IMG/VR virus record: IMGVR_UViG_3300031555_002194
Span: 1 to 64,000 of that record
Reading direction: 5' to 3' (one strand)
DNA: 64,000 nucleotides
Source: a virus
Lineage: Duplodnaviria > Heunggongvirae > Uroviricota > Caudoviricetes
Position 1 is the stretch's first letter; each line of letters begins with the position of its first letter. Below are positions 1,566 to 54,835 of the stretch, one piece after another. The notes under the pieces were generated by a model. It saw only the letters and a program-made list of their open reading frames with translations. It made no database searches and was not told the origin of the DNA. The position numbers and the translations under genes were made by a program.

Positions 1566-1823
1566 ATGAGCAATAAAAACGAAACAAAAGAAGAAAAGAA
1601 AGTAGCCAAAAAGGATATGTTAAAAGATCCAAATTTCAAACAGTTATATGATGTTTGGGGTTTGCTTGGTCAGATTGAAACACAGGCAAGATTCATCAGA
1701 GATAAATCCAAGAGCAGATTTGTAAAAGACGAGGCTCTGATTATGCTGACAAGAATTGAAATGTTAAAGCAGGTATATTTCATGCCTGATGCGGAGGAAA
1801 AATCTGATGAAAGAAGTAATTAA
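1566..1823 (+). CDS. hypothetical protein
   Basis: ORF 1551-1823. The internal ATG at 1566 is preceded by GAAGGTGA. Confidence 0.4.
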   Translation: MSNKNETKEEKKVAKKDMLKDPNFKQLYDVWGLLGQIETQARFIRDKSKSRFVKDEALIMLTRIEMLKQVYFMPDAEEKSDERSN

Positions 1824-17074: not shown

Positions 17075-17219
17075 AACATATCAATAACACATTATATATC
17101 ACATCACAGTGCGTTTCTGACATCGTAAAAAAAATCGGTGTTAGTGACGCACTTTTTGTAGAAGTAATAAGTAAGATAAAAAATTTACTACTTATACAAA
17201 AGACAAAGGTGTGATAATT

Positions 17220-36452: not shown

Positions 36453-37106
36453 TTAAAAATCCTCTTTAATCCTTACAATATCGTCCAGTTCTGTGGTTGA
36501 ACTTTCGATAATAACCAAATCTGTAATAGCTCTGACTTGATGAATAGTGCCAGCAGGAATTCTCACAGTATCTCCAGTATGAACATTAAATTCTTTACCA
36601 TCAATTCTAGCAACGCCAGAACCGTTGACAATATGCCATGTTTCATTTTTCTTCACATGATACTGTAAAGAAATATTTTTACCAGCATCGATATGAAGTT
36701 TTTTCATAGCATACTGTTTCGTAATATCAATTAGGTATTCTTTACCCCAATGTTTATCAACAACAGTTAGACTATCTGTATGACCAGAAGAGATAAAGTC
36801 ATTTGCATTACAGCCTCTATCGTCAACATATATGTCTGCAGCCATCTTACCAGTTTGCATCTTATGGTACTTAACTCCCCAACGATGAAGCTGATCACAT
36901 GTAATGTCACTCCAATCAATTCCAGTTTCAGTGCCACGGGCTGTATAAAAAATAATTTCATGTCCAGCATCATACAGTTGATTTATTTTAGCAATCATAT
37001 CTTTATATGGTTTTGCGTCGAAATAATCTTTCTCCTGAGAGCAAATGGTACCATCGATATCAAAAATATACTTCAGAGGTTTCGTATTTGAATTTTGCAT
37101 ACTCAT
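36453..37106 (-). CDS. HAD-superfamily phosphatase fused to a cupin domain
   Basis: FDIDGTI is HAD motif I (KdsC/NANP-like). The C-terminal half (LHIDAGKNISLQYHVKKNETWHIVNGSG...) is a cupin β-barrel. Start is the ATG after AAAGGAGG. Confidence 0.6.
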   Translation of the reverse strand: MSMQNSNTKPLKYIFDIDGTICSQEKDYFDAKPYKDMIAKINQLYDAGHEIIFYTARGTETGIDWSDITCDQLHRWGVKYHKMQTGKMAADIYVDDRGCNANDFISSGHTDSLTVVDKHWGKEYLIDITKQYAMKKLHIDAGKNISLQYHVKKNETWHIVNGSGVARIDGKEFNVHTGDTVRIPAGTIHQVRAITDLVIIESSTTELDDIVRIKEDF

Positions 37107-37728
37107 ATTCCTCCTTTGTATCAATGTCAATAGTTTGTTCTTCAGGAATTTCAAGAAGAATTAAATCGTCTTTCAACATATATCCGTCTTCTTTAAATTT
37201 CTTTCTGTTGAAGATATGGAAGCAGTGGGCGCATTGAAGCCAAGGTTCAATTTCTTTTGTGGTTAGACGCTTGTAGTCAACATCTGTTACAGCATCCATG
37301 TTGTCGTTCCACAACCAATTTTGAAATTTCTTTGCGCTAGTACCATAATCTTTACCACTGTTTAAGAACTTACTGATTGCAGTAATAATAGTTTGTGGAG
37401 ATAGAAAGATAAGGCATGGATTGAGAAACATCAGATATTTTTCTGCCACATCAAGAACGTCTTTGAAGATGAACTGCAGTGGTCCTTCTGCTTCGGCAGT
37501 AGCGGGATCTCTGATAATAATTTGAACATTTGAATATTTCTCAGCAATATCAATTAGTTCTTTATCACAAATTAGCACATAAGTATTAATACCATAATAT
37601 TTTTTAATATAGTCCAGCTTCTTACAACAAATTTCAAACATACAAGTATCACCAATTGGTAAAATCTGTTTGTTTGGTAATCTATGACTGCTTAGTCTTG
37701 CTGGCACAAAAATTCCTACATGTCTCAA
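37060..37728 (-). CDS. CMP-sugar (acylneuraminate/Kdo-type) cytidylyltransferase
   Basis: N-terminus GIFVPARLSSHRLPNKQIL matches the NeuA/KdsB/PseF P-loop-like motif (PAR.GS.R.P.KN). Confidence 0.65.
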   Translation of the reverse strand: MRHVGIFVPARLSSHRLPNKQILPIGDTCMFEICCKKLDYIKKYYGINTYVLICDKELIDIAEKYSNVQIIIRDPATAEAEGPLQFIFKDVLDVAEKYLMFLNPCLIFLSPQTIITAISKFLNSGKDYGTSAKKFQNWLWNDNMDAVTDVDYKRLTTKEIEPWLQCAHCFHIFNRKKFKEDGYMLKDDLILLEIPEEQTIDIDTKEEYEYAKFKYETSEVYF

Positions 37729-38543
37729 TATAGAATGCCTCCTTTTTCTCGTGTATATCTACCACCGCCATTATTACAATAATAACAGGGCATATCAGGC
37801 GTATATTTTGCCTGAATTACATTTTTTAAAAATGTCAAATATTTTTCTGAATACAACATATCAGTTAAAGATTGTTGTTTTAAATTTCCTAAAATATAAT
37901 CCTTTTGATTTTTACAATCGCTTCTAACGTTGCAACAAGGGCTTACTGTTCCATCATAATTTACGCCAATAAAAAAAAGAGGCTCGTAACACGGAGCTTC
38001 TCTCTTATTTAATGAATATTGAACTAGATTGCCGCCACGATCAGATATTTTAGCAACTTCAGTCCAAGAATAATAGTATAAAATTTTCTTGTTGTAGTAC
38101 GTTCCAACAAAGTAATGGTCATATTCCTGAATATCTGACACATGCCATTCTTGCAGTTTGTTAAATACATATTCTTTCCCTTTGCGATCGTAGTCCATAA
38201 TCGTTAGTTCATCAATAAACATTGTTTTCAAGACTTCTTCTGTGATATAATCACCATTCGTATTAGACACTGTAATTGCTTCCGGAAAAATTTTTTTGAT
38301 ATATCCGATTGCCCAATTCAGTAAATTAACATCGGAAAATGGTTCATTATAACGTGAGAATGAAAATTTTCCGGTATAGCCATTTTGTTTTAATTCACAA
38401 AGAAGAGAGTGGAATACACTACTATCTAAGTATTTGATATCGTTCTGTCTATCAATATAACTGTTTGGACACCAAGTGCATTTTCTATTACAGTAGGAAA
38501 ATAGTTCAATTTCAACCAGTCTAAGATTTTGAATTAACTCCAT
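37725..38543 (-). CDS. radical SAM enzyme with C-terminal SPASM/twitch-like Cys cluster (paralog 2)
   Basis: Radical SAM CxxxCxxC motif is CNRKCTWC. C-terminal Cys cluster PCYEP...SPCCNV...PCYYC. Start ATG at 38543 follows AGGAGGG. Paralogous to the upstream gene. Confidence 0.65.
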   Translation of the reverse strand: MELIQNLRLVEIELFSYCNRKCTWCPNSYIDRQNDIKYLDSSVFHSLLCELKQNGYTGKFSFSRYNEPFSDVNLLNWAIGYIKKIFPEAITVSNTNGDYITEEVLKTMFIDELTIMDYDRKGKEYVFNKLQEWHVSDIQEYDHYFVGTYYNKKILYYYSWTEVAKISDRGGNLVQYSLNKREAPCYEPLFFIGVNYDGTVSPCCNVRSDCKNQKDYILGNLKQQSLTDMLYSEKYLTFLKNVIQAKYTPDMPCYYCNNGGGRYTREKGGILY

Positions 38544-38544
38544 T

Positions 38545-39525
38545 TTATCCCTCCTGTATTTCTGATGCTGCATCTTTTTGTTCAAATTCTTCGTAAATAT
38601 AATTCCAACCAGAAGGTGACCCATAACAATTAATATATCTCTTTTTCTGACAATATTTACAGGGCTATGGATAATCACCATAACGAACTCTGAGTTTTTC
38701 TCTAATCTTTTCTGCTTTTTCAGAATAGTAGATATCAACCAACGGAGTGTCTTTGATATTTCCAAGAATATATTCTTTGTGATCAGGGTTGTCTGGGCGC
38801 ATATGGCAACATGGCATCACAGACCCGTCATATGCAATAGTAATGAAATATTCTGGTTCCGGACATTCTCTGGTTCGTTTATTCATATTTTCAGACCATT
38901 CGTACTGTGGCAAGTCTCCTTGTTTAAAAAATCCGCCACGATTTTCTAGTTTAATATTTTTAGACCAGTTCAATTGAACAGTCACAGATTCCATATAACG
39001 ATGTATGCCATGCAGTAAATCTAGATTTTTATCATAGCCAATTACTAGCACGCCCAACTCTTTTAATTTTTGCTTCCAATATTCCAACCCTTTGTTGTCA
39101 TAATCTTGAATTGAAACATTGGTTAACATCATGTGTTCCAAATTTTCTTTTGTAAGATAGTCACCATTTGTGTTTGTAATATAACATATTCTGTCATCTA
39201 ACACGGAACGAGCTTCATCTATGCGTCTTCGTAATAATTCAGGATCGCTAAAACTTTCTTGATAACCAAGAAACGACATAATGGCAGATGTTCCAACAGG
39301 CTCTTTACCATCTTCTCTATCCGGGAAAAATAAAGTATTATCTTTACCAAAATCTGCTTCTTTTAATTGTCTAATAAGACTTGTAAAAACATCATCAGGC
39401 ATAATTTCTTTAAAACTTCTATCAAAAACTTTGTTTGGACACCAGTCGCATTTTCTATTGCAAAAAGATTGTAATTCGAGGTCTATTCTACGAATGTGAT
39501 GCAAGTTTCTTACTCTTTCACCCAT
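38545..39525 (-). CDS. radical SAM/SPASM-like enzyme (paralog 1) containing an in-frame TAG at 38665-38667
   Basis: Radical SAM motif CNRKCDWC. After the TAG the frame continues 40 codons (PCKYCQKK...) to TAA at 38545. This restores the PCxYC motif conserved in paralog 2. Confidence 0.6.
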
Positions 39526-40571
39526 TTTAAGAACACCTCCTCGTTGTTAATAATAGGACTTGGTTTTACCTTACTATCGTGCAAATAAATCAAATCACGT
39601 AAGAAAATAGGGTACGCATGTACAACTCCAAGAATATCATTCATCATTGTGGTTTCTGCTTCTACTGTATATTCGTTTATTAACGTTTCGCCATTGTTTT
39701 TTATTGTTTCTAATGCTTTCTGAAGCAGATCGTTATCATATAAAATATCACATCCATACATATCTTCAATGATATATCTATATTTTACAGAGCTAGGAAG
39801 ATGGATATATTTACAAACCTTTTTATATGTTTTAAAATCAAAAGGAAGAATTAAGCAAAATACCTTAAAGTCTTCGCTGATTTCTCCTTCCATCGCAAGA
39901 AGCTTTAAAGATACAATTCTATGATTGCCTTCAAATACATATAAATCATCACTCTCATCATCCATCGGAGCAACAACAAAAGGCCACCATGTTCCATTTT
40001 CTATAATAGATTTTGCAAGGCTCAGTTTGTCAGAATGCGCATCTCGAAGAAATGGGTCGTTTACAAAATGTCGCCATGTCTTCTGTGTGATAGTTGGACG
40101 AATATTCAACTCACTAATTGGAATAAATTTTGCCTGAATAACACCTGTTTTTAATAGATTTTTCAAATTTACATTTAAATAATCTTCTTCATACATACGT
40201 CGAACTTCTTCCAAAGAATATTCACGGCGATATTGACAATCTGAGTAAGATCTATTTCTATTTGGGACAGATTCTCTTTTTTGAATATCAAAAACAAATT
40301 CGTTTGTATTCATGTCAATATGGCTACTGATAATAGAATTTTCATATGACATAGATTTGTCATAATCTGTTTTGCTAATAATATCATGTCCAACATCTTC
40401 TCTTTTAATATATTGAAAATTCTCATCACACTCAAATCTTGAATCTAAAAAAGATTCAATATCAAACTGTGTATCATTTGGAGTTACAATTGTCAGAATT
40501 TCTTTATCTCTATTATCAAAGAAAACTATTATTTTATCATTGAAACTATCATTGAACAAGGTTGTCACCAA
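39510..40571 (-). CDS. hypothetical protein with weak ParB/Srx-like motif
   Basis: 353 aa. FEGNHRIVSLKLL resembles a ParB/sulfiredoxin-fold motif (GxHR). Confidence 0.35.
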   Translation of the reverse strand: MVTTLFNDSFNDKIIVFFDNRDKEILTIVTPNDTQFDIESFLDSRFECDENFQYIKREDVGHDIISKTDYDKSMSYENSIISSHIDMNTNEFVFDIQKRESVPNRNRSYSDCQYRREYSLEEVRRMYEEDYLNVNLKNLLKTGVIQAKFIPISELNIRPTITQKTWRHFVNDPFLRDAHSDKLSLAKSIIENGTWWPFVVAPMDDESDDLYVFEGNHRIVSLKLLAMEGEISEDFKVFCLILPFDFKTYKKVCKYIHLPSSVKYRYIIEDMYGCDILYDNDLLQKALETIKNNGETLINEYTVEAETTMMNDILGVVHAYPIFLRDLIYLHDSKVKPSPIINNEEVFLKWVKE

Positions 40572-41208
40572 CCTTCATAACCAATTTATCTGCCGGATGT
40601 AATTGATCATGATATTTTATCACAATATCATTAGCCGTATACAGTTGGCCATTCATTTTGACAGATAATCTGAATAATGGCGCAACATTAAAATTAGGAA
40701 ATGTTTTATTGTTTGTATGTGTTGCTGATGTATCAACAATTGTAATTACATCTGAAATAGTAAAATTCCAAACACTGTTTGCAGATAAAAACCATGTTCT
40801 AGGCACTGATATTGTTGTCGTAGCAGAATGAATAATAGAGCCAGAAACTGCTGCGCCAGTACCATTATCTGCAACCGCAGTAGTCAACGACATATTATAA
40901 AGGGTGATTGACGTACCAAGTTTAACATTGTTCAGTTTGATAGTCGGCAATGTTTTGTATGTAAATGTAGAACATGTAAAACCATTTGTGCCTGTTCTGG
41001 TAATGTTATTTTTAGAATAAATAGTAATATTTATATCTACAATATCACCCTTGGGAACAAATGAATTTATTTTCATATATGCACTAGATGTAATTTGGCT
41101 TGTATTGGATGCAGTTGTATAGTATGTTGCAGACCAAGAATATGTGCTGGAAAATGTAGATCCGAACACACCAGATTCAGTAGTGTAGGGGAGTGTAATT
41201 GAAGCCAT
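40549..41208 (-). CDS. Ser/Thr-rich β-strand protein (structural?)
   Basis: 219 aa, roughly 35% Ser+Thr. Confidence 0.4.
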   Translation of the reverse strand: MASITLPYTTESGVFGSTFSSTYSWSATYYTTASNTSQITSSAYMKINSFVPKGDIVDINITIYSKNNITRTGTNGFTCSTFTYKTLPTIKLNNVKLGTSITLYNMSLTTAVADNGTGAAVSGSIIHSATTTISVPRTWFLSANSVWNFTISDVITIVDTSATHTNNKTFPNFNVAPLFRLSVKMNGQLYTANDIVIKYHDQLHPADKLVMKVGDNLVQ

Positions 41209-41468
41209 ACAATCCCTCCTTAAATTGTAATCCAGATGTCGCCATTTTCCATTTTGTTCACATCTGCTTCTTCTGTAGAAATAATAATATTTCTTACTTG
41301 TTTTACTGTGTAATCTTCATTGCTTTGAGCAATGAGCTTTGCTTCCATCTGTGCTTCTTTAGATGTCTGCATCATATCTTCGGGTGGAAGTAAATTTAAA
41401 TTAAATAAAGCCATGTTTTCATCTCCTTTTAATTAAAAAAGAGAGTGGCTTTATGCCACCCTCGAATA

Positions 41469-43250
41469 TTATGTTAAATCAGGGTAAATGTAAATATTAT
41501 ATGCTGTGTTGTAATAGTATGTGCCATCGTTTGTCCAAGTGATTGCAGCGCCTACAATAGATTTTACATTATTAATTAACAAAGTGTTGAATGTAGTAGA
41601 GTTTGCATAGCAATGAATATTGTATATACGAGAATTGTTTTTTCCATAAAAACAATTTACTGCATTAGACACTTTGTTTGATAATATATATATGTCACCA
41701 TCAAGATTAACACACCCATAATATGTATTACACATATTAATTACATTGTTACCACATACCGGAGAACCTGTTAAATTTGTACAACCACTATACGCTCCAG
41801 CAATATTAGTTACATTTTGTCCAAAAACAGGTGTCCCAGTGATATTTGTGCATGCACTATATGCGAATGCCATATTTGTGACTTTTTCGCCACAAACAGG
41901 AGAGCCTGTTAAATTGCGGCAATTAAAATATACACCACGCATATTTTTAACATTATCACCACAAACAGGGGAACCTGTTAATTTAACACAGTTATAATAT
42001 GTTTGAAACATTGTAACGACCTTATTGCCACAAATAGGAGACCCTGTTAGGTTTGTGCATCCTAAATATGTTTGATACATATTTGTCACATTACTTCCAC
42101 AAACAGGATAGCCTGTCAGGTTTGTGCAACTAGAATATGTATTACACATATTAATTACATTGTTTCCGCAAACAGGAGAGCCTGTCAGGTTGTGACACTG
42201 CCGATATGTATTTAACATGTTAGTTACTTTATCACCACATACAGGCGAACCTGTAAGATTTCCGCAGTTGTAGTATGCATGTGTCATATATATAGTATTT
42301 GTACCACACGCTGGAGATCCATTTAAATTAAAACAATTAGCATATGAATTTATCAAATGCACAACGTTATCTCCACACGCAGCATCTCCAACAATATTTT
42401 TACAAGCCTGATACGTGTTAGTCATATCAATAACATTATTACCGCACACAGGATATCCTGTTAAGCTATAACAATTGTTATACGTCTAATACATATTAAC
42501 AACTTTATCTCCGCATACAGGAGAGCCTGTGAGGTTGTGACAATAATCATATGTACCAGACATATTAACAACTTTATCTCCGCATACAGGAGAGCCTGTT
42601 AAATTAGAACAAGACACATATGTCTGGTACATATTAACAACGTTTTCGCCACAAATAGGAGACCCAGTTAAATTTTTACAACCGCGATATGTGCCACGAA
42701 GATTTGTTACATTATTTCCACATACAGGGGAACCTGTAATATTGTTACAAAAATAATATGTAAAAGACATGTCTGTCACATTCTCGCCGCAAATTGGAGA
42801 GCCAGTAAGATTATAACAATTGTAGTATGTATGATACATATTTTGTACATAACTATCACAAACAGGAGAACCTGTGAGATTTATGCATCCGTTAAAAAAA
42901 AATGATTTGTTTTGAATTTTAATATTCTCATCATATAACTCTGATGTGATATCATGTCTATGGTTTGCCAACCATTTAACCGAAGCTGCTGACGTATATA
43001 ATTTTCTTACATTGTAAACATTATCCGGTTGTTCATTTATGTTATTTGGATCATTACAAAAAAGCAAACTACCATTATTCTAATATAAAGCGTAACCAAT
43101 CTAATCATTGTAAATTAATTTTGCAACATTATTTTTATCGCCGTACTATGCCATAGTAATACCTGTGGCTAAGTCATAGTTGTTTCCATAATAAATTTCT
43201 GTAATATTTTTTATAGTACCATTTGGAGTTATATAAATATTTTCAACCAT
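41469..43250 (-). CDS. Cys-rich BspA-like leucine-rich-repeat protein B (about 595 aa, with in-frame TAGs at 42486, 43080, 43101 and 43146)
   Basis: Tandem ~19-aa repeats Y.NC.NLTGSPVCG.NVTNM. ORF-track pieces 42486-43067 and 41469-42449 share one frame. The TAG replaces Gln in the recurring NMYQTY motif. An N-terminal extension back to the ATG at 43248-43250 (RBS GAGGAGTG) is inferred. Confidence 0.55.
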
Positions 43251-43255
43251 ATTCA

Positions 43256-43960
43256 TCACTCCTCATATACAAAATATAATGTACCTGCTTTTAAATAGTT
43301 ACCTTCTAGGATCTGTTCGGTGGAAACCACGATAGGAAGGTCTGATATTAGATGTTCATGTGTTGGGATACATTCTTGATATAGCTGACCTCTTTTTTCT
43401 TGTAGTTTATACAATCTCACAATATGAATCTCTTGTGTGCAAATAGTTCCACTTTCACAACACATAATGTTCCCATTCATTACATCTTCTTTTGTCGTAG
43501 GGGTGGAACAGTTCCAGCACATTATTCCGCTAGTATTAACAATATCAGGTGAGAGACTAATAGAGTTGCTGACTTCAGAGCCATATTCTTCATTGTATAT
43601 TGATTGCGTAAAAACGAATGATTGAGAATCGTCACTACTAATACGGACTACAGATGAATAATATTCTTGTTCCTCTTCTGTTAATTCACTTTGTATTGCG
43701 ATTGCAGAATATTGATTACCATTATATTCAAGAATATATTGACCTCCAACAACAAGCGTTTCACATTCTAACCCAAACCATAAATTGGACTACCATTCTT
43801 CTTGTGTTTCTGAGTCAATATTATATTGTAAATTATCATTATATTCACAAATACAGATTGGTTCAATTTTATCTTCTCCAAACGGCTTTCCTTCTATCTT
43901 ATCCCATTCTGCTTTTCCAGACCCGCCACCTACAGGCAGATCACCATAATAAATACCCAT
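43256..43960 (-). CDS. Cys-rich hypothetical protein (in-frame TAG at 43790-43792)
   Basis: ATG at 43958-43960 follows AAGGAGTG. The frame is continuous to the TGA at 43256 apart from one TAG. The ORF track shows only the last 88 aa. Confidence 0.5.
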
Positions 43961-43979
43961 TAAGTATCACTCCTTATAA

Positions 43980-44003
43980 AAAGGAGGGTGATTAACCCTC
44001 CTG
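43980..44003 (-). terminator. rho-independent terminator
   Basis: GGAGGGTtaatcACCCTCC followed by TTTTTTAT on the − strand. Confidence 0.55.
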
Positions 44004-44030
44004 AGTATTCGCATTATTATTAAATTAACA

Positions 44031-44270
44031 TTATTCGCTAATCTGACTTTGCAGTTTAGCAATTTCAGCTTTTTTCTTTCTAACTTCTTTTTCCAGATGA
44101 GACTTTAGGAATGTTCTACCTTCAACATCATCGCCCTCAGCAATCAGTCTGATGTTTTCATCGATCATCCACTTCATCTGATTTACTTCAGCCTCGATAC
44201 CCATAATTTTATCTTCAACGGATTCTTCTTCCATTTCAAATTCCAGTTCCATGTTTTCGTTCATTTCCAT
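44031..44270 (-). CDS. small acidic coiled-coil protein
   Basis: 79 aa. Its start overlaps the GT2 stop (TAATG). Confidence 0.4.
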   Translation of the reverse strand: MEMNENMELEFEMEEESVEDKIMGIEAEVNQMKWMIDENIRLIAEGDDVEGRTFLKSHLEKEVRKKKAEIAKLQSQISE

Positions 44271-45490
44271 TATTGTTCCTCCTCGTTATCTGTAAAAATA
44301 TAACCTTCTTCTCCCAGAACACCAGACTTCATATCAAGTTCGTGTACCCAAGCGGGTAATTCTTTTCTAATAGAATCAAACTCAGTTCTACCACCGTACT
44401 CGTCAGTTCTAATTTTGTCCATAAATTCAAAGAATGTCATTTCAGGAATAATTCCGATCATCTCCTGACCACGGGCAGCACTCTGAGATGTGTACATCAT
44501 TTTCAGAATATCATTATCAATATTCTTTTCAAAATCCTTATAGCAAGAATGATAAAATCTTTTTGCATTAAAGAAATTCTGTTTTGCAAACATAGGCTTT
44601 CTTTCTAAACACTGAATGTATGTAAAATACTGACCAATCATCTGTTCTACAGCAAATCTCATTACGTTGCCATTAAAAGGATTCTTTCTCTGACAGAATT
44701 TAACAGCATTGATTGCAGCAGCAGTTGCACCAACCTGACACAGATCCCAGTTGTACAGAGGTTCACCACCATTTTCTTCAATGCCAATTCTAGTAATAGA
44801 ATGATCACTACCTGTTTTCCATAGATAGATAGGGGAGTCAATCAGATTAATCTGAAGAGGCGTACCTTCGATTGTCATTCTAATCATCCAGTTTAATTCT
44901 CCATCTTCCATTGCTCTGAGTTTGCTAAATCTAATACCTTGTTGTCTTAGGAATGGAACATTATATAGTCTGCCAAATACCCAAGGATGACCAATGTCGT
45001 TTCTAGGCATTGTTCTAGGTGGAATCTGCTGACCACTTTGCATTAACTGCATTTTTGTCGCAGAGTTCAGATTACCTTCTGCAACTTCCTGCAGGAATGC
45101 ACCCTGAACTTCGATACAATTAGGTGTGATATTGTTGTACAGTTCTTCTAAAGCAAATGGTGTCATTAAGACATCGTCTGCGTCCATAAATGTGATCCAG
45201 TCTGTTTTACATGCTTCTAGTGCTCTTTGACGAGCCAGACCGGGGCCAGTATTTTTCTCGCAATCTAGAATTGTAATGTCTAGAGTAGGGTAGAGTTTTT
45301 TAAGGTAAGAGTATGTACCATTGTCCGAAGGATAATCATTCGCTAGGATGATAGTTGTGTCTGCTGAAATTGACTGCATCAGCACAGAAGCGAGTAGGGT
45401 AGGTAATGTCTCTTTTGCTTTATAAACTGGCACACCGATTGTTAGTTTTTTGATGTTTGAAGTGTTTTGATTATTTGTGAAGTTATTCAT
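44270..45490 (-). CDS. family-2 glycosyltransferase (GT-A fold)
   Basis: IGVPVYKAKE...ILANDYPSDNG...FMDADDVL carries the DxD motif. The internal ATG at 45490 follows AAAGGAGA. Confidence 0.75.
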   Translation of the reverse strand: MNNFTNNQNTSNIKKLTIGVPVYKAKETLPTLLASVLMQSISADTTIILANDYPSDNGTYSYLKKLYPTLDITILDCEKNTGPGLARQRALEACKTDWITFMDADDVLMTPFALEELYNNITPNCIEVQGAFLQEVAEGNLNSATKMQLMQSGQQIPPRTMPRNDIGHPWVFGRLYNVPFLRQQGIRFSKLRAMEDGELNWMIRMTIEGTPLQINLIDSPIYLWKTGSDHSITRIGIEENGGEPLYNWDLCQVGATAAAINAVKFCQRKNPFNGNVMRFAVEQMIGQYFTYIQCLERKPMFAKQNFFNAKRFYHSCYKDFEKNIDNDILKMMYTSQSAARGQEMIGIIPEMTFFEFMDKIRTDEYGGRTEFDSIRKELPAWVHELDMKSGVLGEEGYIFTDNEEEQ

Positions 45491-45596
45491 ATTTTGTCTC
45501 CTTTTAATCATTTTGATTATCAATCAAACAAAAAGATAGCGAGGATAGTCGCTCTCTAGGTTTGGTAATTTAATTGATGATTTATATTTATTGTTA

Positions 45597-47390
45597 TTAT
45601 GTTAGGTCAGGATAAATGTAAATGTTATATGTTGTGTTGTAATAGTATGTGCCTGCATTTGTCCATGTGATGTTTGCACCAACTAAAGATTGCGTGTTGT
45701 TGATTAGTAATGTATTAAATGTTGTAGAATTTGCGTAACAATGAATGTTGTATTGACGAGAGTTATTTTTGTTGTAGAAACAATTAAGAACATTAAGTAC
45801 GCTTTTAGAATACCAATATTGATTGCCAGCGGATAAATTTATGCAATTAGCATACGCATTACCCATAGTAGTAACTTTATTCCCACACACAGGGATCCCT
45901 GTTAAATTTGTACAATTATAGTATGCTGCCAACATATTTGTAACATTATTGCCACATACTGGTGAGCCATTTATATTGATACAATGCCAATATGCAGCAT
46001 GCATACTTGTAACATTATCGCCACACACTGGTGATCCACTAAGTTTTCTGCAATTAATATATGTTCCAATCATACAAGTGACATTATTACCACACACAGG
46101 ACTACCATTAAGATTTCTACAATTAATATATGCATAATACATATTTGTGACATTATTGCCACATATAGGAGAGCCTGTTAAATTTTGGCAATTTTCATAC
46201 ACATTAGACATGCTTACAATCTTATCACCACAAACAGGCGACCCAGTGATTTTGTTACAGTATTGATACGCTCTAATCATATTAATCACATTATTGCCAC
46301 ACACGGGGCTACCATTAAGATTGAAGCAATTAACATATGTTGTGTACATATTTGTAACATTATTGCCACACACAGGAGATCCTGTAAGGTTACGGCAATT
46401 AAACTATGCCCAACTCATATCAGTAACATTATCACCACACACTGGTGCACCTGTAAGGTTGTAACAATGCTAATATGTGTGATCCATATTTGTAACATTA
46501 TCACCACACACTGGTGCACCTGTAAGGTTACGGCAGTTATGATATGCACAAGACATATTTGTAACATTATCACCACACACTGGAGAACCTGTTAGGTTGA
46601 AACAATTATAATATGTATTAAACATATTTGTAACATTTTGCCCACATGCAGGAGATCCTGTAAGGTTACGGCAGTTATGATATGCACAAGACATATCTGT
46701 AACATTATTCCCACACACTGGTGCACCTGTAAGGTTGTAACAATGCTGATATGTGTGATCCATATTTGTAACATTATTACTACATACTGGTGCACCTGTA
46801 AGGTTACGGCAGTTATAATATGCGTTTTTCATATTTATAACATTGTTTCCGCACATAGGAGCACCTGTAATATTTCTGCAGTTTTCATAAGCATAAGACA
46901 TATTTGTAACATTATCACCACACACTGGTGCACCTGTAAGGTTGTAACAATGCTGATATGTGTGATCCATATTTGTAACATTATCACCACACACTGGTGC
47001 ACCTGTAAGGTTACGGCAGTTATGATATGCACAAGACATATTTGTAACATTATCACCACACACTGGAGAACCTGTTAGGTTGAAACAATTATAATATGCG
47101 TTTTTCATATTTATAACATTGTTTCCGCACATAGGAGCACCTGTAATATTTCTGCAGTTTTCATAAGCATAAGACATATCAGTAACATTATTACTACATA
47201 CTGGTGCACCTGTTAGGTTATAACAATTACAATGCATACTTGCCATATTAACTATATTTGAATAATTTAATTGAATATTTGACAATTTGTTCATATTGTA
47301 GAACGCATTTGACATATTAGTTGTCTAGATCTTCACATTATTAGGTACAACTATTTTAGTCACATTGTTCCATTGTTGAAAATTAATCAA
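45597..47390 (-). CDS. Cys-rich BspA-like leucine-rich-repeat protein A (about 598 aa, with in-frame TAGs at 46404, 46470 and 47325)
   Basis: ORF-track pieces 46470-47315 and 45597-46373 are in one frame. The TAG at 46470 aligns with Gln in the repeated HTYQHCYNLTG motif. A TTG start at 47388-47390 after GGGGGTGA is inferred. The C-terminal ~60 aa is near-identical to protein B. Confidence 0.5.
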
Positions 47391-47409
47391 ATTCTATCAC
47401 CCCCGATAA

Positions 47410-48972
47410 TTATAAAACAATAGTGTCGTAGTCAGGAACGATTATCTCTGTACTAGGCTCTCCATTATAAGTTCCTTTCCATTCAGTTAATGTATATGTT
47501 CCATCAGAATTTGATTTATATTTAAAGTCTTTTAAATAACTAGGATAATCGAAGAATAGCTGCGCAATTCCATTTACATCACCTAAATATGCTTTAACAA
47601 TATTTCGTGCTACTGGTTTTATATACGCCTCAGTTTCTATTTGCGAATAAATATTAAATACCATACTGCAATCATCGCCATTATTCTAGCTTGAATCTTT
47701 TTCATACAAAAATGTTATAGAATCATCACTTTGCAACGAACATGTATTAGTTCCATTCTGTTCTCCAGAAGCTTCTATAATAATTTCAGATGTACCATCA
47801 TTTTTATCAATTCTAATTGTAAAAACATCATAATCAGGTTCAGAGGATACAGACCAATCAAATACAAGATTTATATCCATACGTGCGGTCAATGTAGTAG
47901 TCGCAATCCCTTCAACATTATTATTTGTACTAATAAGTGCATTGTTATTCCAATTAAAATAATAATCATTACCATTTAAAACAGAAAAATATGTATTGAT
48001 ATTATCTTTTGTTATGGGTGACTTAATATATGATAATTCAGTAGGTACACCAATATAAATACAAGACACAATATGAGCAACATCTTGAACTGTTGTAGAT
48101 GGTGTTTCAATTGTTGTTATAAAATTAGAAATTTCAAATGCTCCTTGTGGCACTTCACTTTGTGAATATTCATATGCAAAAAATACAGATTCTCCAGCAT
48201 TAACAAAATGATGTTCAAATTGAAAATTAGATTCAGTTATTTCATACTAAGCAATTTCATTTCCGTCGCAATCACAAACTGTGACATTTATAATTGAGAA
48301 CAATATCGGAGTTGATAAAACAGCATTAAATGAGATTGTTTGATTGTTTATAGCTGATTTAAACTCTATCCACAAGCTATGTGTATCTGTTATAGTTATT
48401 GGTGCACTAACAATTTTCCCATCTAACCAATAAAACGGATTTCCCGTATCAGATGGATCTGTGCCAATATAAATATTGCTTAAATCAACAAAATACTCGT
48501 CAATATTTTCCGGAGTAATATCAATTGTATTTGTTTTCTTTTTTTTCAATGTGATTTGGATGTCGGAAAACACCCTGTCTCCCTCTTCCAAATACATTTC
48601 ATCTTGAAACATAAAAAATACAAATTCATCTTGTTTTAAACTACATTCGAACAAAAAATCATTATCAGGAATATAATAACTTTCATCATCATTCGGCATT
48701 AACTATAAAAGTCCGGCACATCCAGTCATTCTAAATGATAATTTTTCAATATCACACAATGCATCAAAACTCATATCAGCATTTTCTCTCTGACCACAAG
48801 CAGTGTTAATGATTCTGTTATTGTCCCAGAAAAAATAAAATCCAGAACTGCTATTATCATCTCGCGCGCCACAGCCAAGATATTCGTCACAATTGTTTGC
48901 TGTAATGTTAATCACAACTTCTTCATACTCTGGAACTTCGGTTTTTACACCAATACAAGCTAATTTACTCAT
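47410..48972 (-). CDS. structural protein, 521 codons, read through TAGs at 47686, 48247 and 48703
   Basis: Four ORF-track pieces share one frame: 48703-48972, 48247-48699, 47686-48153 and 47410-47664. Each junction is a single TAG with open frame between. The final stop is TAA. Confidence 0.5.
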
Positions 48973-48983
48973 ACTAGCTCACC

Positions 48984-49724
48984 TCACTCAATAACGAAAT
49001 ACAAATGTCCCTCAGCCAGTGGAGTCTCTCCTGCAACTATATCTTCTGTTCCGTAAGAATAGGGTAGGTTAATATTAGAAATTGCGTTATATACAGCTTT
49101 TGCACTAGGAGTGTCATCATCTGTGGAATTTTCATCAATCACAGTAACTTTAGTGTCAGGTACTACTGTCCATTCGCCAGTAACAACCTTTAACATTTTG
49201 CCATTGTCATAATTATTTACTTCAGGTAGAGCAACAGGCATAGGAACAACTGCCCATTCACCATTAACTACCTGAACAATTTTACCATTGTCTTCTGCTG
49301 TAACTTTAGGAAGACCACTGCCAGATGCATTTTCACTATCAGTTGTGAAATACACACAGTTGTCATCTCTGTCTTCAATAGCATCCAGTTCTTCCTGAGT
49401 ACCAACCCAGAATGTGATTTTCTGACCTTTGTTCTGCTCAACAACAGAGCTAGAATCCAGACCGCTCAAAGCATCTTTTACAGCTTTAGCGGTAGGGATC
49501 ATTGTATCACTATCTTCTAAAGTAGTGGACAATGTTGCGCCATTCAGTGTGTACGCATCGCCAGCGTTTAATTTAACCCTCTGGTTATTAGGTGTGTCTA
49601 CTGTACCTAGATTCATATCGATGTACATATAGCCATCGTATGTTACCTAGCAATAGCCTTCATGAAAAGGAGTAATATCTGTTGAGATGCGAGAAGCATC
49701 ACCGTGTAAAATTTTAAATAACAC
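48984..49724 (-). CDS. structural protein (GTG start, in-frame TAG at 49647-49649)
   Basis: GAGGTGAattata precedes the GTG at 49722-49724. The ORF-track ATG at 49628 lies 6 codons downstream of the TAG. Confidence 0.45.
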
Positions 49725-49810
49725 TATAATTCACCTCGTTATGATTCATAGTATTATGCTTTGCTTTAGCGTCTCTGACCGCTCCTAAAGCATAATATGT
49801 TTTTAAGTAA

Positions 49811-49838
49811 CAAAAAAACAAGCCATCAGCTTGTTATA
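49811..49838 (-). terminator. rho-independent terminator
   Basis: AACAAGCtgatgGCTTGTT followed by TTTTTGTT on the − strand. Confidence 0.5.
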
Positions 49839-49849
49839 TTAACATATAA

Positions 49850-51316
49850 TTATTCATAATTGTAAGTTTGTTCTGCAATGATAACGTCAGAAGCAACAAC
49901 ATCTACCAGTTTACCAGAAGCAGGAAGTTCAAGTTGACCTTCTGGTGCTGGGAACTGATTAAACCATACTTCGTTATCTTGGATATATGCATTATATGTA
50001 TTATATTCGGAATTTACCCATTCTTCCCATGTCATACCTTCTTCTCCTGTAAACTCATATCCGTTAGGTAGATAGAATGAGATTGTTTCTGGTTCTATAG
50101 GAGTTTCTGGCTCTTCAGGTTCTGCTGGAGGTTCTGGTTCAGGAATAACTTCTTCGATGTAATTAACAGGATAATATTCCACAAAGAACTTCATTTCAGA
50201 AGATGGCAGAGATGCGACTGTAAATGTTAGTGCATTTTCAGATAATGCAATAGCAGTAATATTGTCATCAATTTTTGCGATTAAATTACTTGATGTTTCA
50301 TATGGTTTAACATTTACAACCTGTCTTGTTGCGTCAGATAAAATACCATCAATTGTTACTGTTTGAGTTAGTGTTTCTTCATCCCAGTTTTCAACAAGCA
50401 GAGTTGCTGTTGTTAGATTATGAATGGCACTATTAGCTATATCACAAACTTCACCAATGGCATTTTCTAAGTTTTGGTAATCATCAGATGTTAAATAGTC
50501 TTGTTCGATACCTTTAACTTCGGCTTCTACAGAAGTAAGACGTCCAGCATTATCTCTCGTGCCATTGTACGCATCATCTGCTGTGTTTTGTGCAGTTTGA
50601 ACATCTTCCTGCAATTGCTCAACATCATCTTCTAAGGCACTCACTCTTTTAACAAGTTTTGTGGAACTTGTTGTATCAGACTGAATCCATTCTGCAACTT
50701 CTTGTAATGTGTCAAAGTCTGCTGAAACATTTTTACCTAAGACTGTTTCGATCGCTTCTGTTTTAGCTGAATCAATCGCATCTGTTAATTCTGATTTTGT
50801 ATCTGTAACAAGTTTGCGTAGATTCGTATCTGTGTCATCAATATCTTTAGTTAATTTTGTATCAGTATCAGAAATTGATTTTTCCAATGCTTCTCTTGTA
50901 GAATTAATTGTATTTGTTAAGTCTGTTTTAGTTGTATTAATAGAATTTGTCAGACTATCTTTTGTATCATCAATATAGTCAGTTAAATCGCTTTTTGTTT
51001 GATTTACATAATCAGTCAGCTCTGAGGATTCAATCTGTTTCCATACTTCATCAAATCTATAAAAAGAGTTTTTGTCTTTTACAAAATATAATACAGCTGT
51101 GTTTGCAGATTCAGGCAGATTTTCCTATGTATCTACTTTTAAATAGTGACCATATGTTTTGAATTCACCATCTGGTAGCGCAAGATGAATACATTCATTT
51201 GTTGCAAAATAAATGGCTCCTTGCTCAGACTTTGTTGGAATTCTTTCTAATGGCCCTTGTACTAATTTAACAATATCAGACAATGTTGCCACCGTCCTTT
51301 CTGCCTTCGCCGCCAA
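49850..51316 (-). CDS. repeat-containing fibre/baseplate protein (in-frame TAG at 51125-51127)
   Basis: The 79 codons between the TAG and the ORF-track start encode the same TK(S/D)DLTD/TNTI repeat style as the downstream 345-aa part. The exact start is uncertain. Confidence 0.45.
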
Positions 51317-51821
51317 TTACTAAGTTCATAACAACATTTTCATTCAATGTAGAATCTTCGTTTCTCTCAGGTCGTTCTTCAAACGCAGTGAAAGTAATTG
51401 TACCAGTATCTTGATTAGTTGCAAGAATTTTGCATCTTGATACAATTTCCAGATTGTCAATATCCATATCTGCTGCTGCAAAAATAATGTTTGTTGGAGT
51501 AACACCTGATATACTAACTGTCTGTGTATATGGAGCATCGGAGTCAAATTCATAAACCATATTCCATGTTGAATTATACATATAACATACATCATACATT
51601 ACATAACCAATGTTTGCTGTGCCAACTTCAGGCAGTTCAGTAACAAACTCAAATGTATTGACAACAATACCTTGAGTAGAAAGTTCTGTTTTTGCTGCTG
51701 TTATTTTTTCCTCATCAATAACACCAACCCAGTCTGTTGCTGGCAAAGTGATTGTTGTCTGAATTAATTTGTCTTTCTGCATTTTTAATATTTTTTTATA
51801 ATCATGTAAGCTATAATACAT
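51276..51821 (-). CDS. hypothetical structural protein
   Basis: 181 aa with a TGA stop. Confidence 0.45.
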   Translation of the reverse strand: MYYSLHDYKKILKMQKDKLIQTTITLPATDWVGVIDEEKITAAKTELSTQGIVVNTFEFVTELPEVGTANIGYVMYDVCYMYNSTWNMVYEFDSDAPYTQTVSISGVTPTNIIFAAADMDIDNLEIVSRCKILATNQDTGTITFTAFEERPERNEDSTLNENVVMNLVIGGEGRKDGGNIV

Positions 51822-51842
51822 AACAATCCTCCTTTCCCAGTA

Positions 51843-53264
51843 TTAAACATAGATCCATCTCATATAAGTTGCTTCACTGTATTTATCAGTGGAAACACTA
51901 GGTGTTATATAATATACATTACCAACTTGTTTATAAACCCTTGTACATTGGTAAGTAGGATTAACACCATACTCATCAAATGTTGTGAACACTTCTGTTT
52001 CTGTTCCATCTTCATTTTCTGTTAAAACTGCTCTGGCAACAACAACATTGTTTTTATCAGTGTCAATTAATCTAGCTTCCATGGTGTATACAGGCTCATT
52101 ATCTGTAATTGTGATTTCAACATCATCTCTTTCAAAATAATGCTGATAAATCTTCTTCTGCAGACTTGTGCCTGCGTTGTCAAATACATAATTTGCCTCA
52201 GTTTCAGGCATATAAGACATATAACCAGAACCAACTTTAGTCTTCAGAATAACATGGCCATCGTTCTGAACATGTAGCCATAGACCACCTTCTTCTAAGA
52301 ATGCAGGGGTTTCCGCACCAACGGCAAGCTGTAAAGAAACATCCAATTTAGTCCAATCTTCAGAATCAGCAGATGGTTCACTGCCAGTGCATCCATTAAT
52401 TGTGTACCATAGATAACCATTGTGAGAAACTAAATCATTTGCAGTATAAATTGCGGTAGAATCCCACGCACCACGAGGGGACATGCCAGTGCCAGATTGA
52501 CCATCAAAATAGTCAACATTTTTAACTGGAGTATAACCAGCTTCACCTCGATCGCCCTTGATAGACATCTGCATATATTTATCTAAATTTTCAATGGGGA
52601 TTTCACCAGCTTTAATATCGTTGCTGATAACCATAAAATACTGGTTTACATCTTCGACCTGTCCAATAGATTTCCATTTACCTTTTGTGTAAATATAACA
52701 CTCATGATAAACACCAATTGATTTTCTTAGATGATATTTTTCAGGGTCTTTTGCTGGATCAAATTCTAAAATATAAATTGTATCGCCTTCGCCAGTAGTA
52801 GGAAGTTCGTCTACAACCACCATTTCAGACATCATGATTCCAATTTCTCTAGAAATATTATAATAACGCACAGGATATCTGACGATATCATACATGTGCA
52901 AAGCATTTTCTGTATCTTCTGTACCATCATCATTTTTGGCATCAGTACACATTGTTGCTGCCCAGTCACCTTTTAGCTGACCGATTTTATAAATCTTTTC
53001 TCTAACATCATCAAAGAAGAAATGTTGTAGAGCCAGAATAGAGTGGTGTATTCTTTTTAATTTGTCAGCGTTAATCTGACAATCCATCAAATGTGGATTT
53101 TGTGCCAAAATGTTCAACGCAGCAGAGTTGTTGCCAAATGATAAATACTGGTCATACTGTCTGATCAGCTCCATATCATTTGCAGTAGGGTCTGCAAAAT
53201 TCACTTGCTTGTCCAATTGATCAGGAAAGCTTGAATGCGTATACTCAGGATAAGTAATACTCAA
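51843..53264 (-). CDS. baseplate/tail structural protein
   Basis: 473-aa ORF with a TAA stop. Confidence 0.5.
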   Translation of the reverse strand: MSITYPEYTHSSFPDQLDKQVNFADPTANDMELIRQYDQYLSFGNNSAALNILAQNPHLMDCQINADKLKRIHHSILALQHFFFDDVREKIYKIGQLKGDWAATMCTDAKNDDGTEDTENALHMYDIVRYPVRYYNISREIGIMMSEMVVVDELPTTGEGDTIYILEFDPAKDPEKYHLRKSIGVYHECYIYTKGKWKSIGQVEDVNQYFMVISNDIKAGEIPIENLDKYMQMSIKGDRGEAGYTPVKNVDYFDGQSGTGMSPRGAWDSTAIYTANDLVSHNGYLWYTINGCTGSEPSADSEDWTKLDVSLQLAVGAETPAFLEEGGLWLHVQNDGHVILKTKVGSGYMSYMPETEANYVFDNAGTSLQKKIYQHYFERDDVEITITDNEPVYTMEARLIDTDKNNVVVARAVLTENEDGTETEVFTTFDEYGVNPTYQCTRVYKQVGNVYYITPSVSTDKYSEATYMRWIYV

Positions 53265-53285
53265 CTTATATTTCCTCCTTTCTAA

Positions 53286-54833
53286 TCATTTAACAATATC
53301 AAAATTGTACAAAGGGGAATACTCAATGAGTGTTAACGACATTACACCACTAGGATGTTCGGAGTTAATGCTTTGCACAATCCAGTCTTTTACCTCGTCA
53401 GTTGCAGATAGTTTAAATTGAATTTTTTCATTACCTTGCAACCATGGAATAAAGACCATTTCTAAAGTTACTGTATAGACAACTTTTGCGGCCAGCCATG
53501 TTTCATATTCTGCTCTTGTAATACAGTCGTCAATTGCTTCAATGTCATCATATTCGCCACCCTGAAACGCCTTCATTCTTTCGCCAATTCTTTCAATAGC
53601 AAAAGGGGAGTCAGGTATAATTGTCTATGTTATATCAGTTGTACCATGTTTTTCTTCATCTGCTTTTTTCTCTTCCGCAGTTGGATCAGTATTTCTTAGT
53701 TTGTTTACAGCAAAAATCTGATACTGACCAAGAAGGTACATGTTTTTTCTTCTATATCTAAATACATAACCAGCATCTTTCAAAAAAGAATTTTTCTTTA
53801 TTTTTTCTTCTGAACTGTTTGTTATATCAAATGTACCAACCAGAGTTTCTTCTCCGTCTGCGGTTGGCTTATTATAAATAGCTATTTTAGCATTGTCTGC
53901 AGCATCAACAGCTGGAATTTTAACCGCAAACTTTGTACTTGTTGGCAAACTTTTATCATCATTTAATGCGATACCAACAAAGTGAGCGGAGTATGTATTT
54001 GACGCAGCATCGTATGTACATTCTGTTGTATAATGATCTGTATCAAGACACTTACCCCAAACCTTGCTAACATTTCTAATATCTTTTAAAACACCATTAT
54101 CTGTTTCTGACATATATAATTTTTGCAAATAATCATTAGACAAAACAGGTGGATCTGTTTCAGGCATAATGTATTGTCTACAAATAAATGTGCCATCTGT
54201 ATCAAAAAACATTTCGTATCCGGGGTGCAAATCCCTTAATGTTGTAAGTATAGACCAAACTGTGTCTGTTGCACCAAATTCCAAATCGTGAGGAATTGGT
54301 TTTGGCATATCTGCAACATAATAGTTTTTAAAAGGTGAATATTCTGTTAGTGTGTGAATAATTGCTTCACGAATAGTCCATTTTTCTTCTTCATAGATAA
54401 CAGTTTCTAACCCCTCTAAAGAGCCACCAACATCACCATTCAAATAACATACTAAATCAGAACAGTTAATAGATAATGTGCCAGCTTGAACATTGTAGTT
54501 CTAATCAGTCATCACAAAGATACCTTTGTCGTAATACTTAATCTCATCATCAAAATTTGGTACACGATAGCCAATGTACACTTTGATAAATTTGTTGATC
54601 CACAATAACTTGTCTTCTTCTATGCCGATGTTTTTATTAATAACACCAAGCGTCATAGAAAATGTATGTCTAATATCTGAATCAACATTTGTTGATAAAC
54701 TACCAGAAATGAATTCATGCTTCATTTCATATACTTGCTGAAAATGTTCATTCAACAATGCGATTTTTACATACCACATCTTTTCTGGATAGTATAATTT
54801 TCTCAGGTCGTCATTGGTAGGGTAGTAAGCCAT
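53286..54833 (-). CDS. baseplate/tail protein, 515 codons, read through TAGs at 53625 and 54501
   Basis: ORF-track pieces 54501-54833, 53625-54443 and 53286-53576 share one frame, joined by single TAGs with open spacers. The final stop is TGA. Confidence 0.5.
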
Positions 54834-54835
54834 AC

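Follow-up and report, generated by a model that had tools for sequence, protein, structure and literature searches.

Two cysteine-rich leucine-rich-repeat (LRR) genes occupy positions 41,469 to 47,390 of the 64,000-nt stretch of DNA analyzed here, which covers positions 1 to 64,000 of the virus record IMGVR_UViG_3300031555_002194 (Caudoviricetes) and is referred to below as the window. They raise the question of what such proteins do for the phage and which nearby gene works with them. An initial annotation, made from the sequence of the window alone, had seen in them candidate receptor-binding proteins and had linked their paired cysteines to metal binding or to radical SAM enzymes encoded nearby. 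Our analysis indicates that the two genes, called g1 and g2 here, probably encode paralogous adhesin subunits of the distal tail fiber in a gut phage whose late genes are read with TAG as glutamine. The conserved partner of the cysteine-rich LRR (Cys-LRR) genes is a GT2 glycosyltransferase gene (GT2), not the radical SAM pair; this had been missed by the initial annotation.

Gene structure, repeat unit, and TAG codons

Under the standard genetic code, the minus strand between 41469 and 47390 gives four open reading frame (ORF) fragments (41469-42449, 42486-43067, 45597-46373, and 46470-47315). On straight translation, each pair of fragments turned out to be a single continuous repeat protein broken by TAG alone. 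There were four in-frame TAG codons in g1 (43146-8, 43101-3, 43080-2, and 42486-8) and three in g2 (47325-7, 46470-2, and 46404-6), and no in-frame TAA or TGA was found in either gene. Once TAG is read through, proteins of 595 and 597 aa result, which bears out the view of two paralogous minus-strand genes spanning this region. For g1, two ATG codons could serve as the start, one at 43256, which overlaps an upstream TGA, and one at 43250, with a better spacing to a GAGGAG ribosome-binding site. The g2 gene starts with a TTG after GGGGGTG, and its N terminus reads L-I-N-F, compared with M-I-N-F at the start of the homologue P0006. As judged straight from the sequences, neither protein has a signal peptide. 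The C-terminal caps, which had been called near identical, are indeed similar: their last 93 aa are 72% identical, many of the differences between them at the DNA level are synonymous, and the DNA similarity of the two genes ends at the stop codon.

The repeat unit was found to be exactly 23 aa (69 nt, also the period given by Tandem Repeats Finder) and recurs without any slip in register, 17 times in g1 and 20 times in g2. Its consensus is C-x-N-L-T-G-S/A-P-V-C-G-x-N-V-T-N-M-x-x-T/A-Y-x-x, with two near-invariant cysteines per unit. Both proteins had been described as consisting almost entirely of one cysteine-rich unit of 19 to 20 aa (57 to 60 nt). The motif and the two cysteines per unit stood, but the length did not, three variable positions having been left out of the motif. 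The total number of cysteines is 39 in g1 and 48 in g2, rather than about 50 per protein. At the DNA level, the mean pairwise identity between units was 63% in g1 (maximum, 80%) and 71% in g2. The longest exact repeat in g1 was 40 nt, and a direct count in g2 gave exact repeats of 143 nt at a 483-nt spacing and of 91 nt at a 276-nt spacing. Recent higher-order block duplicates were confined to units 1 to 12 of g2, in which units 3 and 10 were 100% identical, units 2 and 6 were 99% identical, and units 4, 7, and 11 were 94 to 99% identical. The near-perfect tandem repetition proposed for both arrays therefore holds for this part of g2 only.

The recoding of TAG to glutamine, the only reading under which g1 and g2 would be intact, is supported by several observations made inside the window. 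Unit 11 of g2 differs from unit 4 by a single base, which changes CAG to TAG, and unit 7 also has CAG there; similarly, the TAG in unit 6 of g1 corresponds to CAG in unit 4 and to CAA in unit 12. The conserved sequence and the repeat register carry on across every TAG of both genes. A radical SAM gene (38665-39525) apparently ends in TAG, and read-through gives Q-PCKYC, comparable to PCYYC of its paralogue. The extended gene (rSAM2) stops one base ahead of the ATG of its paralogue, and its Pfam SPASM domain is complete only with the read-through. As a terminator, TAG was used by 0 of 24 plus-strand early ORFs, and all eight minus-strand ORFs ending in TAG run on in frame. In-frame TAG codons were present in nine late-side genes (the late genes occupy 38545-56925 on the minus strand); within the window, none was found in the early plus-strand genes, the integrase gene, GT2, or two giant genes. 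The initial annotation did not mention TAG recoding.

The same pattern has been described for gut-microbiome phages that read TAG as glutamine (bioRxiv 10.1101/2021.08.26.457843; PMC9523058). As in code-15 gut phages (crAss-like, Lak, Garnet/Topaz, and others), the in-frame TAG codons of this phage occur only on the late, structural side and are missing from the integrase and early genes, the genome is AT rich (35% GC), and TAG is never a terminator. It differs from these phages in that no DNA similarity to deposited phages was found (14 kb compared by megablast with 50,697 phage records gave no match) and in the absence of a suppressor tRNA from the window: ARAGORN found no tRNA in the 64 kb and hence no suppressor tRNA(CUA) there, the rest of the genome lying outside the data. 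Such a tRNA was present in only about 40% of the genomes of phages with TAG read as glutamine in published surveys (bioRxiv 10.1101/2021.08.26.457843).

If the stops were real, g1 and g2 would be decaying pseudogenes or assembly artifacts. Such an account would agree with the splitting of each gene into several ORFs under the standard code, and the 143-nt exact repeats of g2 could collapse or expand in an assembly of short reads. However, TAG is the sole interruption in some 1,190 codons in an AT-rich genome, register and consensus are unbroken at each TAG, TAG behaves alike in eight other late genes and in relatives, and g1 has no long exact repeats. We consider decay or artifact hardly credible.

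Solenoid fold and the paired cysteines

The g2 protein matched Pfam DUF285 (PF03382) with 41.9 bits (cutoff, 25; E = 9.8e-11), over residues 24 to 127 only, and g1 gave no DUF285 match in Pfam. Neither protein matched PF13306 (LRR_5) at E ≤ 0.01, nor did either match TIGR02167 of NCBIfam, a repeat of about 26 residues compared with their period of 23. More than 551 database homologues carry the repeat together with the cap; none of them is named, and many carry PF03382 and/or PF13306. An AlphaFold model of g1 residues 270 to 595 (326 residues) had a predicted local distance difference test (pLDDT) score of 95.7 and a predicted template modeling score of 0.91. In this model, each 23 residues contain one short strand, located in N-V-T-N-M, and the cap is a small sheet-plus-helix structure. 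The closest PDB folds were the BspA-like LRR_5 proteins of gut bacteria 4gt6, 4fs7, and 4h09 and the TpLRR protein 6mlx (probability, 0.99 to 1.0). In BFVD, the closest models came from phages and giant viruses and had BspA family or LRR annotations, with template modeling (TM) scores of up to 0.68. According to these results, the assignment of g1 and g2 to the BspA/TpLRR/DUF285 class of LRR solenoids is supported, as had been proposed initially, by the DUF285 match of g2, the domains in the homologues, and the modeled solenoid. The accompanying remark that LRR proteins are unusual in phages was overstated, because many phage and giant-virus genomes contain genes annotated as coding for BspA/DUF285 LRR proteins. 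Matches of g1 and g2 to Kazal_2, KfrB, DUF7736, nitrite reductase, and HetL contained no individually significant stretch and were put down to the Cys/Asn-rich composition of the repeats.

Like BspA-like and TpLRR proteins (LRR_5, PF13306), g1 and g2 have a 23-residue period and a predicted solenoid with one short strand per coil; in our own mapping, the cysteine at position 1 together with the A/T-Y pair would correspond to ...AFxxC... of the TpLRR consensus. They differ in having a second invariant cysteine in the P-V-C-G turn, where the TpLRR consensus has proline. Their repeats are also far more uniform, and they are phage borne, without a signal peptide or cell-surface anchor. At NCBI, TIGR02167 ("bacterial surface protein 26-residue repeat") and DUF285 go under the name of BspA family LRR surface proteins. 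In the g1 and g2 unit, the core N-V-T-N-M-x-x-(A/T)-(Y/F) is the DUF285 signature, but the unit has 23 rather than about 26 residues, and when we aligned the two, the "l-s-n-W-d-t-s" loop was shorter by three residues and contained C-G.

A profile of the cap and two units, with clustering at 50% identity, gave 8,360 clusters at E ≤ 1e-3 and 2,719 clusters at E ≤ 1e-10, and the family includes multimodule proteins of up to 3,775 aa. In the representative library, the giant members P0361, P0362, P0375, and P0391 have 2,267 to 3,775 aa and 30 to 37 matched stretches each, and in P0001, P0022, and P0061 two or more array-plus-cap modules are chained in one protein. Among 185,579 species genomes, the family was found on two contigs only, both from metagenome-assembled genomes (MAGs; loci L037 and L038), and the subfamily appears to be phage restricted. 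The related loci used below were recovered with an alignment of the cap domain; a query with a single protein gave none.

The two cysteines of the unit were examined by residue statistics on 1,138 units from 120 homologues. Cysteine was present at position 1 (C1) in 93% of the units and at position 10 (C10) in 91%. Where C10 was replaced, the replacement was chiefly valine or isoleucine, which fits a buried core position. There was no co-loss of C1 and C10 of the same unit (odds ratio, 1.5; p = 0.29), C10 of one unit and C1 of the next were never lost together, and C10 was lost jointly in adjacent units (odds ratio, 6.8). From these patterns, we infer that the two cysteines of each coil would form two stacked, buried ladders rather than intracoil disulfides, metal sites, or radical SAM targets. 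Of the β-solenoid with a cysteine ladder that had been envisaged at the outset, the solenoid was thus obtained in the model (pLDDT, 95.7; one strand per coil), and the ladder comes from the substitution statistics only. Two cysteines per coil are also known from the Tenebrio antifreeze protein, a cysteine-braced β-helical protein in which the two cysteines of each 12-residue coil are joined as a disulfide. The likeness lies in the two invariant cysteines per coil of a regular solenoid. The difference is that the coil cysteines of g1 and g2 do not covary and that C10 is replaced by valine or isoleucine, which would argue against an obligatory intracoil disulfide.

These results also bear on the proposal that the paired cysteines bind metal or are cross-linked through thioethers by the nearby radical SAM/SPASM enzymes, as in the maturation of ribosomally synthesized and posttranslationally modified peptides. 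The cysteines are regularly spaced in substrate-like repeats, peptide-modifying maturases exist among SPASM enzymes, and a paralogous pair of such genes (37725-39525) lies about 2 kb from g1. However, tblastn and phmmer found no homologue of either radical SAM protein (rSAM1 or rSAM2) in 28 related loci, although the Cys-LRR family has thousands of members. The pair does not adjoin g1 either, as had been supposed, since two unrelated genes (39510..40571 and 40549..41208) intervene. Its own neighbors, a cytidylyltransferase gene and a HAD/cupin isomerase gene, provide a sugar-nucleotide context, and the whole cluster (36453-39525) looks like a lineage-specific sugar-nucleotide pathway. Together with the V/I replacements at C10 and the absence of co-loss of the two cysteines of a unit, this makes metal binding or cross-linking very unlikely, and this part of the initial annotation is not supported.

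The GT2 partner gene

The two LRR genes bracket GT2, as described initially. Its product matched Pfam Glycos_transf_2 (E = 2.7e-18). When loci related to the window were collected through their Cys-LRR genes, a GT2 orthologue (E values of 1e-39 to 1e-234) was found directly downstream of the Cys-LRR gene in 22 of 28 loci; the other six were truncated or represented additional LRR copies on these contigs. Conversely, a Cys-LRR gene was present in six of the eight loci collected through GT2 (L029, L031, L032, and L034 to L036); in L030 and L033, the same lineages are represented by truncated copies. The pair is also carried by both MAG loci. The adjacency was found in about 17 independent lineages, that is, in all that were sampled, with GT2 usually 0 to 120 nt past the stop codon of the LRR gene. 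A small gene of 74 to 82 aa follows GT2 on its 3' side in all of the close relatives (L029 to L036). Since the pairing is conserved across the family, GT2 would be expected to work in the same process as the LRR proteins. GT2 itself is highly conserved, with identities of 77 to 96% in one subfamily (more than 749 matches) and 80 to 100% in a second (more than 2,291 matches), whereas the LRR proteins are 43 to 58% identical to their best matches, far below the values for GT2. In near relatives, GT2 and the following small gene orf78 (44058-45646 in the window) form a DNA island of 74 to 84% identity, and the flanking LRR genes align at the level of the repeats only.

The GT2 protein was also modeled with AlphaFold with the use of database proteins (pLDDT, 81.9). 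The top Foldseek matches were TarP, RmlT, and TarS (E ~ 1e-13; target-normalized TM scores, 0.5 to 0.65), and the best PDB sequence match was TarP 6h1j (E = 2.7e-9). In PHROGs, GT2 is labeled "GtrB-like O-antigen conversion," in the moron category. TarP, TarS, and RmlT share with GT2 a GT-A fold with a DxD-type motif (DADD in GT2) followed by a helical domain, and TarP is also phage encoded. GT2 differs from them in being only 15 to 19% identical, in its position between tail-fiber cassettes, and in its universal linkage to Cys-LRR genes. The predicted fold thus suggests an enzyme that modifies a wall glycopolymer recognized by g1 and g2, and the universality, tight spacing, and conservation of GT2 may point instead to glycosylation of the fiber.

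In the first case, a TarP-like GT2 would modify the host cell-wall glycopolymer that serves as the receptor of the LRR adhesin, for superinfection exclusion or for keeping progeny off debris, and the linkage of the two genes would reflect a shared target. Besides the TarP match, the leading fold matches, and the PHROGs label already described, this agrees with the features of GT2 in the window, where it is flanked on both sides by terminator-like hairpins, contains no TAG among its 22 Gln codons, and shares the DNA with an integrase gene. In the related locus L036, moreover, a TagD-like cytidylyltransferase gene comes right after GT2 and the small ORF. However, a universal, tight coupling to late tail-fiber genes in relatives is not what this account would lead one to expect, lysogeny is not evident from a family that is nearly missing from bacterial genomes, and the structural likeness is that of a generic GT-A plus helical domain at 15 to 19% identity. 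Modification of the receptor is possible in our view, with the odds somewhat against it.

In the second case, GT2 would glycosylate the LRR proteins themselves, with the near-invariant N-L-T-G-S-P-V-C-G-x-N-V-T loop as the acceptor (N-, O-, or S-linked), to give a hyperglycosylated fiber; this is compatible with a role of g1 and g2 in the tail fiber. Dedicated transferases that modify repetitive β-helical adhesins are known, as in HMW1C/HMW1 and Aah/AIDA-I, and S glycosylation is carried out by a SunS-type GT2. The presence of GT2 in all of the roughly 17 lineages, usually within 120 nt of the LRR stop codon, suggests cotranscription, and the contrast between a GT2 of 77 to 96% identity and LRR proteins of 43 to 58% fits an enzyme that reads the invariant part of the repeat. 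The carriers are often phage-like contigs of 100 to 280 kb, with only two among the 185,579 species genomes, which points to a core gene set rather than an accessory of lysogenic conversion. Each unit also contains two N-x-T sequons (N3 in 73%, T5 in 76%, N13 in 66%, and T15 in 64% of the units). On the other hand, the nearest sequences and folds, those of TarP, RmlT, and TarS, act on wall teichoic acid and not on protein. The SunS-type model (TIGR04195) gave 15.9 bits compared with a cutoff of 350, and SunS was outside the top 50 fold matches. N-L-T and N-V-T are common consensus residues of LRR/DUF285 repeats, so the sequons may be structural, and the lack of TAG in GT2 and its position between terminator-like hairpins in the window are moron-like. 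We regard glycosylation of the LRR proteins as rather doubtful. Its fullest form, in which the LRR-GT2 pair is a dedicated system that decorates every coil of the fiber, possibly on cysteine (S linked) or asparagine, with the radical SAM, cytidylyltransferase, and HAD/cupin cluster supplying an unusual activated sugar in this phage, is likewise a speculative one; if true, a widespread group of large gut phages would have a sugar-coated, protease-resistant fiber.

The fold class, LRR proteins in phages, and the recoding of TAG are already known. What is new is a large, apparently phage-restricted subfamily of 23-residue repeats with putative cysteine ladders and its invariant pairing with a TarP-like GT2. 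In the literature on DUF285/BspA proteins in phages and on virion glycosylation, we found neither this subfamily nor the LRR-GT2 pair described.

Tail context, variation, and neighboring genes

The same strand carries tail genes upstream of g2: 53286-54833 matched a tail protein of PHROGs (E = 7e-16), and 51843-53264 matched tail fiber PHROGs. Each LRR gene stands second in a cassette of two genes. The last ~40 aa of the protein encoded at 47410-48972, which precedes g2, are the lead-in motif found ahead of the LRR array in fused homologues (e.g., P0003), and such fusions of an array to a lead-in motif support a role of g1 and g2 in the tail fiber. The pairing of g1 with its 234-aa partner was also found in L034. 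Neither partner protein matched PHROGs. The lead-in and the array are separate genes here and in L001 and L035, and a frameshift fusion of 47410-48972 with g2 was ruled out by a TGA at 47397-9 in the g2 frame.

The number of units among relatives was found to range from 4 to 32, a comparison that the initial annotation had proposed. In the coils of g1 and g2, positions 1, 6, 8, 10, 14, 17, and 21 are near invariant, and positions 2, 12, 18, 19, 22, and 23 are variable, each with 3 to 11 different residues. With this variation in unit number and at six positions per coil, the tail-gene context, and the absence of a signal peptide, the suggested receptor binding and its diversification through repeat number are plausible. 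The related contigs L032, L034, and L036 end inside the neighboring Cys-LRR array, a few hundred bases from GT2, which suggests that short-read assemblies break at the arrays or that the arrays differ within populations.

From these data, we infer the presence of g1 and g2 in the virion, their binding to a receptor, and the two candidate acceptors of GT2, and we propose the following arrangement. The two proteins would be solenoids of 17 or 20 coils of 23 residues each, closed by the conserved C-terminal cap. The near-invariant positions, including both cysteines, would build the core of the solenoid, and the six variable ones would make up an extended variable face for binding to a structure on the host surface. 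New variants would arise by point changes at these six positions and when whole coils, singly or in blocks, are gained or lost, as seen in the recent g2 duplications. Each LRR gene would be preceded by the gene for an adaptor protein in its cassette, with the TarP-like GT2 and the small coiled-coil protein placed between the cassettes, and GT2 would act either on the cell-wall glycopolymer recognized by the adhesin or on the adhesin itself.

Several points weigh against this reading. Neither g1 nor g2 matched PHROGs, and no close homologue was found in any isolated phage, tblastn giving only 31% matches to two Synechococcus phages. Relatives occur in MAGs with differing labels, one in Dialister and others in Kiritimatiellae and Bacilli. 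The PDB fold matches of the g1 model were weak in absolute terms (E ~ 1e-3; TM scores, 0.33 to 0.46), probably because of a differing curvature. An assembly error in copy number is possible for the 5' half of g2, owing to its 143-nt exact repeats. The joint loss of C10 in adjacent units could stem from the shared ancestry of neighboring units, and the burial and spacing of the cysteines are read from substitution patterns alone.

Alternatively, g1 and g2 might not be in the virion at all and might act as intracellular LRR binders of host proteins, for example, in takeover or antidefense. LRR domains bind proteins generically, and both proteins lack a signal peptide and a structural match in PHROGs. 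However, the two genes close the tail module, are encoded on the late strand, and contain recoded TAG codons like other late genes, and their homologues include arrays fused to large fiber-like N-terminal parts and multimodule proteins of 1,000 to 3,700 aa. An intracellular role is improbable in our opinion, and tail-fiber adhesins remain the preferred reading of g1 and g2.

Gut bacteria, phages, and giant viruses abound in BspA/DUF285-type LRR proteins, yet a ligand is known for almost none of these proteins. A solenoid adhesin that varies at six surface positions per coil and in coil number would provide a clean system for the study of host-range variation, and the conserved pair of an adhesin and a glycosyltransferase offers a directly testable logic, with either the receptor modified or the fiber glycosylated. 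There is also a warning for annotation: with the standard code, TAG cuts these genes into pieces, and related contigs frequently end within the arrays, so that proteins of this kind are systematically misannotated and underassembled in metagenomes.

The features of the locus are listed in Table 1.

Table 1. Coordinates of the LRR genes, their repeat arrays and caps, and associated features in the window
Feature	Position	Strand	Remarks
HAD phosphatase fused to mannose-6-P-isomerase-type cupin	36453-37154	minus	
CTP_transf_3 cytidylyltransferase	37060-37728	minus	
Small radical SAM/SPASM enzymes, paralogous pair	37725-38543 and 38545-39525	minus	Second needs TAG read-through for SPASM domain
Terminator-like hairpin after g1	41441..41463	minus	
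g1, Cys-rich LRR protein, 595 aa	41469..43256	minus	N-terminal domain of ~123 aa, 17 units of 23 aa, one degenerate unit, C-terminal cap
g1 C-terminal cap (last unit, degenerate coils, ...NIYIYPDLT)	41472..41750	minus	Conserved family-wide
g1 array, 17 units of 69 nt each	41715..42887	minus	Mean pairwise DNA identity, 63%
Upstream partner of g1, 234 aa (MGIYYGDLP...LYFVYEE)	43256..43960	minus	One in-frame TAG; stop overlaps g1 start
Terminator-like hairpin after GT2-orf78	43982..44002	minus	
orf78, coiled-coil protein, 79 aa	44031..44270	minus	ATG overlaps GT2 stop codon
GT2 glycosyltransferase, 413 aa	44270..45511	minus	GT-A domain with invariant DADD plus helical C-terminal domain; no TAG
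Weak terminator-like hairpin, g2/GT2 gap	45538..45553	minus	
g2, Cys-rich LRR protein, 597 aa	45597..47390	minus	DUF285-like lead-in of ~55 aa, 20 units of 23 aa, one degenerate unit, C-terminal cap
g2 C-terminal cap	45600..45878	minus	72% identity to g1 cap
g2 array, 20 units of 69 nt each	45846..47225	minus	Units 1-12 at 46398-47225, with recent segmental duplicates
Upstream partner of g2, 520 aa	47410..48972	minus	Four standard-code ORFs joined, three in-frame TAG read through

Other genes were noted in the window and in related loci. Proteins with Mtd_N, the N-terminal domain of the major tropism determinant, are encoded near the LRR-GT2 module in L001 (17895-19244) and L029 (1096-2343). 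Two very large minus-strand genes, 26134-33402 (2,422 aa) and 57277-62745 (1,822 aa), gave a single family match, to DUF6273 at the C terminus of the first, and this domain was also found in tail-region genes of the relative L029. The minus-strand gene 34154-34876 encodes a Peptidase_C39_2-like protein (E = 5.5e-11); because this domain is paired with PG_binding_1 in L003, the protein is probably an endolysin. Early plus-strand genes encode an ATP-dependent DNA ligase (1789-3093), an anaerobic ribonucleotide reductase (NrdD; 5854-7779), and a tyrosine integrase (17211-18446), a set that fits a phage of an anaerobic, gut-type host.

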